A DNA stretch of 64,000 nucleotides from Patescibacteria group bacterium (GTDB taxonomy: Bacteria; Patescibacteriota; Minisyncoccia; Phycocordibacterales; Phycocordibacteraceae): NCBI GenBank assembly GCA_018826905.1, contig JAHJYC010000002.1, forward strand, positions 14,786-78,785, given 5' to 3'. Both the position numbers and the translations under genes were made by a program. Position 1 is the first letter of the stretch. Each line of letters begins with the position of its first letter. Below, one piece after another: positions 17,086 through 18,513 of this stretch. The notes beneath the pieces are model-generated. The model had not been told where the DNA came from and searched no databases. It saw only the letters and a program-made list of their open reading frames with translations.

Positions 17086-17796
17086 CTATGGCTCAACCGT
17101 AAACTCTCCCTGAACAATTGGACACATCTTTTGTACTTCTTCTAGTTTTTTAATAAAGAGTGTCTTCCAGTCTTGGAATATCGGCTTAATGATTTCCTCC
17201 CATTCAAAAATAGATATTACAGGTAATTGTGATACGTGTGGCGAAAACCCGCTGAAGAAATTATCTCCGAGAGTTACTTTTGTAGGTCCTGGGAAAAGAT
17301 TTAGAATTGATCTAACTATAGTCTCCGGGTTGTCGTCTTTAAAAGAGTAAGTGTATGCGGTATGAGCAATTACCTTATTTCGGAAGGTTCGGACGGGTTT
17401 AAACCTCTTCTTGAGTGTTTTGCATGCATCATCCGTTAAGTTCACTTGTCCGGCTGATGCTTCTTTCAAAAGAGTAGACATTCGATCGTATTCAAAAATA
17501 AGAATATCCTCCATTAAACAGAGCTGATTCACATATCCCTGAGTCCTCGATCCTAGTCTAATTCCAAGTCTGTCTATATCGTCTATGTTCTCTTGAGAAT
17601 ATCCATGCTCATTTCTGCGGGATTTAACTGCCGTATGGGTCTTGTTGAAATCTTCAAGCGCCTCACCAAATAACCAATTTGTGGCATCAAAGAGTTTCTC
17701 TAAGGGATCCATAGAGATAATATTTGGAACATAGATGACGGTATTCTTTGAACCATCACGAACCTTGATCTTATATTGGTCGATTTCTCTGAACAT
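17086..17796 (-). CDS. HEPN-like (Abi-like) protein with Rx5H motif
   Basis: 236 aa; ...RTFRNKVIAHTAY... fits HEPN Rx4-6H motif (as in AbiD/F/U2-type proteins); 3 nt downstream of the Ymh-like gene (operon). Confidence 0.55.
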   Translation of the reverse strand: MFREIDQYKIKVRDGSKNTVIYVPNIISMDPLEKLFDATNWLFGEALEDFNKTHTAVKSRRNEHGYSQENIDDIDRLGIRLGSRTQGYVNQLCLMEDILIFEYDRMSTLLKEASAGQVNLTDDACKTLKKRFKPVRTFRNKVIAHTAYTYSFKDDNPETIVRSILNLFPGPTKVTLGDNFFSGFSPHVSQLPVISIFEWEEIIKPIFQDWKTLFIKKLEEVQKMCPIVQGEFTVEP

Positions 17797-17799
17797 TAT

Positions 17800-18513
17800 T
17801 TATTTGATAGATTCCACAATGCGCAGAAGTTGATTAGCAATATGGATTATATCTGCCGCTTCTTTAGGGTCTTCAAATGTAACGTCGCGGTGGCTTGAAG
17901 GATTTTTGTACGTTCCGATTGCCCCTGAAAAAAGATCCATCCGAGCCTGCTGTTCACCGGGATGAGATAACCTATCAACGAGTGGGGCTGAGGGAGGGCC
18001 AAATGCCTTTTTCATTAGATCAACCCCAATCTCCTTATCCGAAAGACCTGACTTTGCTCGCACACGCACCTCAACCTCTTTAAATGCTTGGAAGACAGCA
18101 GTGTCGTAGTCGCCACTTATAAAGGATTGTTTTACCTTTCTTACAAGTATTGGGTCCAAGCCCTCGGACGGAAGAAGGTAGCCTTTCTTGTAGGTCTCAA
18201 AATCTTCGGACTCAAGTACTTTCTTACCTCGCGGAGTTATAAAAGCCCATTCGCCTCCTGCGCCTGGTTGCGGAGCTACGAAAAGCTCCTTCTCAAGCCA
18301 CATCCATGCCATCGCAAAACGTTCCATTATTCGGTCTCTGTTACCGCCTGACCAACTTATGAAATCGGAGTCCGTACCAAGCAGGAAGTTGTAGCGATTC
18401 AGTTGACCGCGCCCTGCCTGACTTAAATGTTTTAAGACTAGTGGCCCAAGATCTTCCGGTTCCATATCAATAACGACTTCCGGGAGTGGAAAAGTCTCTG
18501 AGTAGTGAGCCAT
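17800..18513 (-). CDS. Hypoth_Ymh / TIGR02391-like protein (HEPN superfamily, RM/Abi-associated)
   Basis: 237 aa; C-terminal [34 protein letters not shown] resembles the conserved C-terminal block of the Ymh family. Confidence 0.5.
   Translation of the reverse strand: [237 protein letters not shown]

Follow-up and report, generated by a model that had tools for sequence, protein, structure and literature searches.

Two adjacent genes next to a tRNA

The stretch analyzed here, 64,000 nucleotides of contig JAHJYC010000002.1 from a Patescibacteria group bacterium (hereafter, the window), contains two adjacent genes on the minus strand, denoted geneA (17800-18513, 237 aa) and geneB (17086-17796, 236 aa), and the question addressed here is whether these genes comprise a system. 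Both open reading frames (ORFs) start with ATG. geneA encodes a winged-helix-like N-terminal domain followed by a C-terminal HEPN domain of the Ymh (TIGR02391) family, and the product of geneB belongs to a rare family of AbiU2-like candidate HEPN proteins without a curated model. An earlier note on this DNA had reported two minus-strand ORFs of ~237 aa separated by 3 nt, and its coordinates and lengths proved exact; the peptides quoted in it were recovered as well, a 34-aa block at the C-terminus of geneA and TFRNKVIAHTAY at residues 137-148 of geneB.

The 3 nt between the stop codon of geneA and the ATG of geneB (17797-17799) had been taken as a sign of an operon. The gap is real, but the inference is weak: 18 of the 46 co-directional neighbor pairs in the window (39%) are separated by 10 nt or less, so that the spacing carries little weight. 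Downstream of geneB, a strong hairpin with a T-rich tail (16965-16998, minus strand; 15 bp, 10 of them GC), which is also an inverted repeat, probably ends the geneA-geneB transcript. Upstream of geneA, 360 nt separate it from a tRNA-Asn gene on the same strand; no sigma-70-type promoter was found in this interval, where promoter-like matches occur at the frequency expected from shuffled sequence, a result that is uninformative for this lineage. The two genes differ in base composition, the GC content being 0.388 for geneB, within the lowest 0.2% of 711-nt windows, and 0.471 for geneA, compared to the window mean of 0.476. geneB is compositionally foreign and geneA is not, which suggests separate histories for the two genes.

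geneA is a member of the Ymh family

The product of geneA passes the curated thresholds of both PF09509 (Hypoth_Ymh; 89 bits, cutoff 25) and TIGR02391 (69.2 bits, cutoff 39.45). By these profile scores, it is an unambiguous member of the Hypoth_Ymh/TIGR02391 family, the known family to which the earlier note had likened it and to which it adds a new member. Altogether, 826 homologs were detectable, and the best 120 of these are conserved over their full length, N-terminal domain included, at 55-74% identity; two relatives only come from viral contigs. The N-terminal domain (aa 1-117; 18163-18513, minus strand) is winged-helix-like and matches no Pfam model. In the predicted structure, this domain is followed by a HEPN fold, and the model displays the four helices characteristic of that fold.

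The HEPN active site has been defined by an Rx4-6H motif situated where helix 3 ends, with a polar residue following the arginine, and by Ex3[KR] in helix 2 (PMC3710099). The corresponding motif of geneA in the family alignment is K203-N-P-S-S-H208 (17890-17907, minus strand), at the end of the modelled helix 185-202. In the alignment of the geneA subfamily, H208, N204, E146 and R150 are invariant, with E146-x3-R150 located in helix 2 of the model, and the position of the canonical arginine is occupied by lysine (K203) in more than 90% of the members and by arginine in a few. The same domain yields weak PADLOC matches to PD-Lambda-3_B (E 9.5e-6; aa 129-212, partial) and to a HEPN protein associated with prokaryotic Argonaute (E 5e-4). 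PDB sequence-profile searches initiated with the family profiles of geneA and geneB retrieved no match, and for geneA, no solved or characterized relative was found by sequence.

geneB represents a rare family of probable HEPN proteins

An exhaustive profile search of 1.84e9 protein cluster representatives identified 71 relatives of geneB, all of ~230-260 aa. The full-length homologs at 50-65% identity number 48, and those with a named source are nearly all from Patescibacteria. A renewed homolog search with the geneB superfamily profile recovered virtually the same set of proteins, none of which was an annotated relative; no relatives were found in viral contigs, and there was no match in plasmids. 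In profile scans against Pfam, TIGR and PADLOC, no match of geneB exceeded a curated threshold, and there was no PADLOC match. The only profile match was to the Pfam family HEPN_AbiU2 (PF18734), at 18.5 bits (E 1.4e-3; cutoff 26.8 not reached) and over aa 112-147 only; the same profile matched 8 of 60 members of the geneB superfamily, with the best E value of 4.8e-6.

The geneB motif R139-N-K-V-I-A-H145 (17362-17382, minus strand), of the Rx5H type, is located at the C-terminal end of the predicted helix 3 (residues 123-147). R139, H145 and W210 are invariant across the divergent 60-member alignment of the geneB superfamily, and in the close 48-member family, N140, D97, E102 and R105 are invariant as well, the first being the polar residue expected to follow the arginine and the latter three lying in helix 2. 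The AlphaFold2 model, a confident one (pLDDT 90, pTM 0.87), is a bundle of long helices. The motif and its placement in the helix fit the arrangement described for HEPN domains (PMC3710099). Taken together with the PF18734 matches, geneB probably encodes a divergent AbiU2-like HEPN protein, which is distinct from saying that it is a demonstrated member of PF18734. The description of this protein in the earlier note, as one with a canonical HEPN motif like that of AbiD/F/U2-type proteins, can be retained with respect to the Rx5H motif, which is invariant, whereas the profile similarity to AbiU2 is below the threshold. Comparison of the geneB superfamily with the Ymh family using hhalign detected no relation. 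geneB is the founder of a small family that lacks a curated model and belongs to a known superfamily.

The two gene families do not travel together

The genomic neighborhoods of homologs of both genes were compared. For geneB, 29 loci were fetched, which correspond to 19 distinct places, 13 of these with at least 0.8 kb of sequence upstream of the geneB homolog, the side on which a geneA counterpart would be expected; for geneA, 10 distinct loci were examined. None of the 19 geneB-homolog loci contains a Ymh ORF detectable with the hidden Markov models (HMMs) of the geneA family or the Ymh domain, in precomputed Pfam annotations or by Pfam scans of the immediate neighbors. Conversely, no ORF of the geneB family or superfamily is present in any of the 10 distinct geneA-homolog loci. 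The earlier note had proposed a two-gene module consisting of a Ymh and an Abi-like protein, and had itself named the lack of co-conservation elsewhere as the outcome that would speak against such a module; this lack is what was found, at all 19 and all 10 loci. The nearest relatives of the two genes also keep other partners: a protein with 73% identity to geneA (P0050) is followed by a gene for a 203-aa protein of unknown function, and one with 64% identity to geneB (P0003) is preceded by a DUF5677 gene.

The neighbors of geneB homologs are heterogeneous. Among 99 ORFs, no Pfam family is represented more than twice, and apart from one pair of related contigs, no similarity was detected between neighbor ORFs from different loci. 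Restriction-modification (RM) genes adjoin geneB homologs at 4 of the 19 loci and are of different types (N6_N4 methylases; HpaII RM with Vsr; R.Pab1; and type I RM), and the other neighbors are housekeeping genes. It is very unlikely that one or both genes are neither defense genes nor active RNases, but RNA- or ligand-binding proteins with the HEPN fold or selfish addiction genes, with the Rx5H motif of geneB serving some other function. Such a role is disfavored by the strict conservation of R139, N140 and H145 at the topologically correct position and of acidic and basic residues in helix 2, by the patchy, island-associated distribution of the genes, with RM genes beside these four geneB homologs and in the window, and by the foreign GC content of geneB.

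Several individual geneB loci deserve description. In locus L005 (3600-6771), the geneB homolog overlaps vsr by 8 nt at the end of an operon encoding an M.HpaII-like methylase, R.HpaII and Vsr, and the island that harbors these genes also holds a large serine recombinase. The closest homolog on a long contig (64% identity; L009, 4186-5750, also L010) has a DUF5677 gene 11-14 nt upstream, the product of which scores 29.8 bits (cutoff 27.1), and the locus lies beside a type I RM system (HsdR/HsdM). In two further loci, geneB homologs without a Ymh gene directly follow a co-oriented tRNA-Glu gene, at 117 nt (L003, 5811-6777) and ~90 nt (L013, 5478-6360) from its 3' end; no tRNA-end repeats were found around these solo homologs, which thus provide no case of geneB alone as an att-bounded cassette.

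Half of the geneA homologs (5 of the 10 loci) are solo genes. Each of the remaining five is followed by a tight co-directional gene, at -4 nt in L030 and L045, +9 nt in L033 and +16 nt in L037, and overlapping in L038. These partners are all different, namely, proteins of 203, 262 and 183 aa of unknown function, an SLFN_AlbA_2 protein and a DndB/DpdB-like protein. Rx4H-type motifs are present in three of them (IRNQLLHG, NRHWLLHG and LRRIPGHP; L030, 5714-6325; L045, 4711-5499; L038, 5701-8136). The 203-aa and 262-aa partners match no HEPN profile, and in hhalign comparisons, the L030 and L045 partners appeared unrelated to geneB, and the L030 partner unrelated to Ymh.

Partners of this kind could reflect a modular two-gene system in which a constant winged helix-turn-helix (wHTH)-Ymh protein acts as a sensor, regulator or co-nuclease and is combined with a swappable downstream effector, namely, the AbiU2-like HEPN protein geneB in the window and, at other loci, small proteins with RNxxxH or RHxxxH motifs, a Schlafen/AlbA_2 protein or a DndB/AbiU1-like protein. 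The analogy would be with PD-lambda-3, in which a PD-(D/E)XK protein is combined with a Ymh-like B subunit. In addition to the five downstream genes that overlap the geneA homologs or lie within 16 nt of them, and the motifs in three of their products, the match of geneA to PD-Lambda-3_B is in line with this possibility, PD-lambda-3 being an abortive-infection system (PMC13190303), and so is the location of geneA and geneB in one att-bounded islet (see below). A modular system is nevertheless unlikely, given that half of the geneA loci are solo and that all 19 geneB-family loci lack a Ymh gene or a recurrent partner, which implies that geneB does not need geneA. Furthermore, tight spacing is the background in compact genomes, geneA and geneB differ in GC content, and for the 203-aa and 262-aa partners, the HEPN assignment depends on a short motif that was noticed post hoc and has no profile support. 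The broader proposal, that wHTH-Ymh proteins are the constant subunit of an unrecognized modular two-gene defense family widespread in the candidate phyla radiation (CPR), in which the translationally coupled downstream gene encodes an exchangeable effector, often a second, highly divergent protein with a HEPN motif, and geneB is one such effector that possibly forms a heteromeric HEPN RNase with geneA, seems to us quite unlikely.

The same neighborhoods bear on a toxin-antitoxin (TA)-like arrangement specific to this locus, an option raised in the earlier note and now disfavored. In this case, the toxin would be geneB, acting as a HEPN RNase, and the upstream, translationally coupled geneA would neutralize it through a heterodimer that occludes the composite active site and/or repress the operon via the winged helix. 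We find this improbable: at the 19 loci with geneB homologs, there is neither a Ymh gene nor a conserved neighbor, and constitutive toxicity of geneB would be incompatible with viability there. Furthermore, geneA retains the catalytic-type H208 as well as E146 and R150, uncommon features in a protein that is only an antitoxin. Profile scans of both proteins gave no match to MNT or another antitoxin family, and the AbiU2 protein of Lactococcus lactis alone is non-toxic in Escherichia coli (PMC3985639).

Three of the geneA-homolog loci have further features of interest. In L045 (3125-5499, also L046), a gene for a PD-(D/E)XK protein (PDDEXK_1/Cas4-like) lies 108 nt upstream of the geneA homolog, and downstream, the gene for the 262-aa protein (4-nt overlap) is followed by a DUF4238 gene, with a large serine recombinase alongside; the combination of PD-(D/E)XK and Ymh proteins recalls PD-lambda-3. 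The downstream partner in L038 is an 811-aa DndB/DpdB-like (DGQHR) protein of the AbiU1-related class. L033 (3951-8354) is a tRNA-Thr island that consists of a tyrosine integrase, the geneA homolog, the SLFN_AlbA_2 gene after the 9-nt gap, and a convergent reverse transcriptase gene (RVT_1).

Tandem islets at tRNA-Asn

The tRNA-Asn(gtt) gene upstream of geneA (18875-18947, minus strand; predicted by ARAGORN, with the Rfam tRNA score of 74.1 bits) is the integration target that bounds the islet containing geneA and geneB (islet 1), and was the only match in an Rfam scan of the region from 13 to 19.5 kb. Its 3' end is present in three copies, the real tRNA (18868-18899) and two direct degenerate repeats on the minus strand, of which copy 2 (16997-17075, att-like) closes islet 1 and copy 3 (13924-14000) closes a second islet (islet 2). 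Copies 2 and 3 are ~75% alike over ~75 nt and have the flank CAAAGTAG in common. The Smith-Waterman score is 45 for the alignment of copies 2 and 3 and 34 when copy 3 is aligned with the 3' end of the tRNA, compared to the null distribution of 13.8 +/- 2.3 with a maximum of 25. Islet 1 spans ~17031-18874 (1.85 kb), with geneA and geneB as the sole intact cargo, and islet 2 spans ~13961-16996 (3.07 kb) and contains only the gene for an MmeI-family Type IIG/IIL RM enzyme (14102-16861, plus strand; 919 aa). The latter protein contains all five MmeI Pfam domains and matches the PADLOC profile REase_MTase_IIG with 1191 bits.

The 3' remnant of a large serine recombinase gene (18591-18914, plus strand; ~100 codons) overlaps the 3' end of tRNA-Asn in the antisense orientation. 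The ORF itself occupies 18618-18914; the similarity spans 18591-18899 and aligns with residues 394-499 of 499-aa proteins annotated as 'recombinase family', with tblastn matches (best E 4e-11, 35% identity) to 'recombinase family protein' genes of Legionella (4e-11) and Neochlamydia (4e-7). Neither further recombinase fragments nor an intact recombinase gene were found within the window. Elsewhere, large serine recombinases flank homologs of both genes (L005, L036 and L045), and a smaller 'recombinase family' gene lies beside a geneA homolog in L039. Judging from these sequence features, islet 1 appears to be a decayed serine-recombinase integrative element, and the tRNA-end repeats indicate tandem accretion of two islets at one tRNA. 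In these respects, the region resembles tRNA islands and integrase-less tandem elements akin to cis-mobilizable elements (CIMEs): two successive blocks of cargo are delimited by directly repeated copies of the tRNA-Asn 3' end, a recombinase remnant abuts the tRNA, and the GC content is low. It differs in that the islets are tiny and carry no more than one or two cargo genes, and in that the recombinase is of the serine type, rather than the usual tyrosine integrase.

The earlier note had placed the pair in a tRNA-proximal islet next to a Type IIL RM system. The RM enzyme is indeed nearby and convergent to geneA-geneB, and the islet of the pair is tRNA-bounded, but the MmeI gene belongs to a second, separate islet. 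With a repeat-bounded islet of its own, the MmeI gene is a separate insertion; the possibility that geneA-geneB and MmeI form a single functional unit was considered and rejected on the grounds of this separate islet and of convergent transcription. Just beyond islet 2, an ORF of 167 aa (13334-13837, plus strand) shows sub-threshold matches (E ~2e-3 to 4e-3) to Host_attach and to baeRF_family12, an archaeo-eukaryotic release-factor-like family.

Comparison with known systems

We know of no member of the Ymh family with demonstrated activity. geneA conforms to this family (PMC3710099) in that it passes the thresholds and has the HEPN fold, with Ex3R in the second helix and [K/R]-N-x3-H where the third one ends, and its homologs occur as solo genes in mobile or RM-rich contexts, in agreement with the description of Ymh genes as 'solos ... 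in operon with R-M'; AbiU2 is likewise reported in 'R-M operons' (PMC3710099). It departs from the family in the lysine that replaces the motif arginine in its subfamily and in its ~117-aa winged-helix-like N-terminus, which matches no Pfam model, including those of the fusion partners AbiJ-NTD and AbiTii.

In lactococci, the abortive-infection locus AbiU includes AbiU2 as its second gene. The match of geneB to the AbiU2 profile covers the helix with the RNx4H motif, and both are of the HEPN type, RM-associated and the second gene of a pair. However, geneB scores below the Pfam cutoff, and its relatives are solo genes that come almost entirely from Patescibacteria metagenomes. The gene upstream of geneB is Ymh rather than AbiU1 (DGQHR/ParB-like), and no DndB or DGQHR match was found for it. 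Operons of two HEPN genes, for example, Bxe_C0808 with AbiU2, were already catalogued in 2013 (PMC3710099).

The PD-lambda-3 system is similar to the locus in its two-gene layout, which includes a Ymh-like protein, and the Ymh region of geneA matches PD-Lambda-3_B. This system is said to be one of the two-gene abortive-infection systems of Vassallo et al. 2022. It reportedly contains a PD-(D/E)XK nuclease domain (PMC10952713), and such a partner is absent here; moreover, the B match is weak and partial, and geneB has no PADLOC match. Like HEPN-MNT TA systems of types II and VII, the locus is a tight bicistron that encodes a small HEPN protein, and the HEPN toxin 7ae2 is among the structural matches of both models. 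By contrast, neither protein matches a nucleotidyltransferase family, both genes are HEPN-like, and neither family is conservedly paired.

A probable stack of two single-gene candidates

Because the two families do not co-occur, their neighbors vary, tight spacing is the norm and the GC content of the two genes differs, we favor, with reasonable though far from full confidence, the explanation that each of the two genes is a single-gene HEPN candidate in its own right, independent and self-sufficient, and that the two are stacked in one decayed islet without making up a two-gene system. Each protein is a candidate abortive-infection or toxin-type RNase. By analogy with characterized HEPN domains (PMC3710099), each would form a homodimer in which a pair of R/K-x4-5-H motifs makes up a metal-independent RNase site, and each would be held inactive until phage infection and then cut cellular or phage RNA, with growth arrest as the outcome. 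The winged-helix domain of geneA is probably a nucleic acid-binding one, with a role in sensing or autoregulation. The adjacency of the two genes would reflect the accretion of a defense island in a compact genome, rather than mechanistic interdependence.

Several observations weigh against this explanation. As described above, five of the 10 geneA loci include a tight downstream gene, and here, geneA and geneB currently reside in one mobile unit, between tRNA-Asn and copy 2, and are probably co-transcribed, as judged by the 3-nt gap and the single downstream terminator. The geneA motif has lysine in place of arginine, and PD-lambda-3, a validated two-gene abortive-infection system, has a subunit that weakly resembles the Ymh domain of geneA. 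The co-occurrence sample, 19 geneB and 10 geneA loci, is also small.

The earlier note had not recognized the pair as a named system; none of the two-gene systems compared above matched, but under the explanation of independent stacked genes, the pair does not make up a system at all. Conceptually, the locus adds little, given that a catalog published in 2013 included Ymh and AbiU2-like HEPN genes located beside RM genes in mobile islands. It is, however, a tidy example of the accretion of defense genes, in the form of miniature, decayed integrative cassettes, at a tRNA gene of an ultra-small genome, and a cautionary case as well: in a compact genome, a 3-nt gap is no sign of a functional module. 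Should the alternative of a Ymh protein with a variable partner prove true, it would give the widespread, uncharacterized TIGR02391 family a testable role. The definition of the geneB family is useful as well: it numbers ~71 clusters in a set of 1.8 billion proteins, its HEPN-type motif is clean and invariant, and its members come almost entirely from Patescibacteria, the defense repertoire of which is poorly charted.

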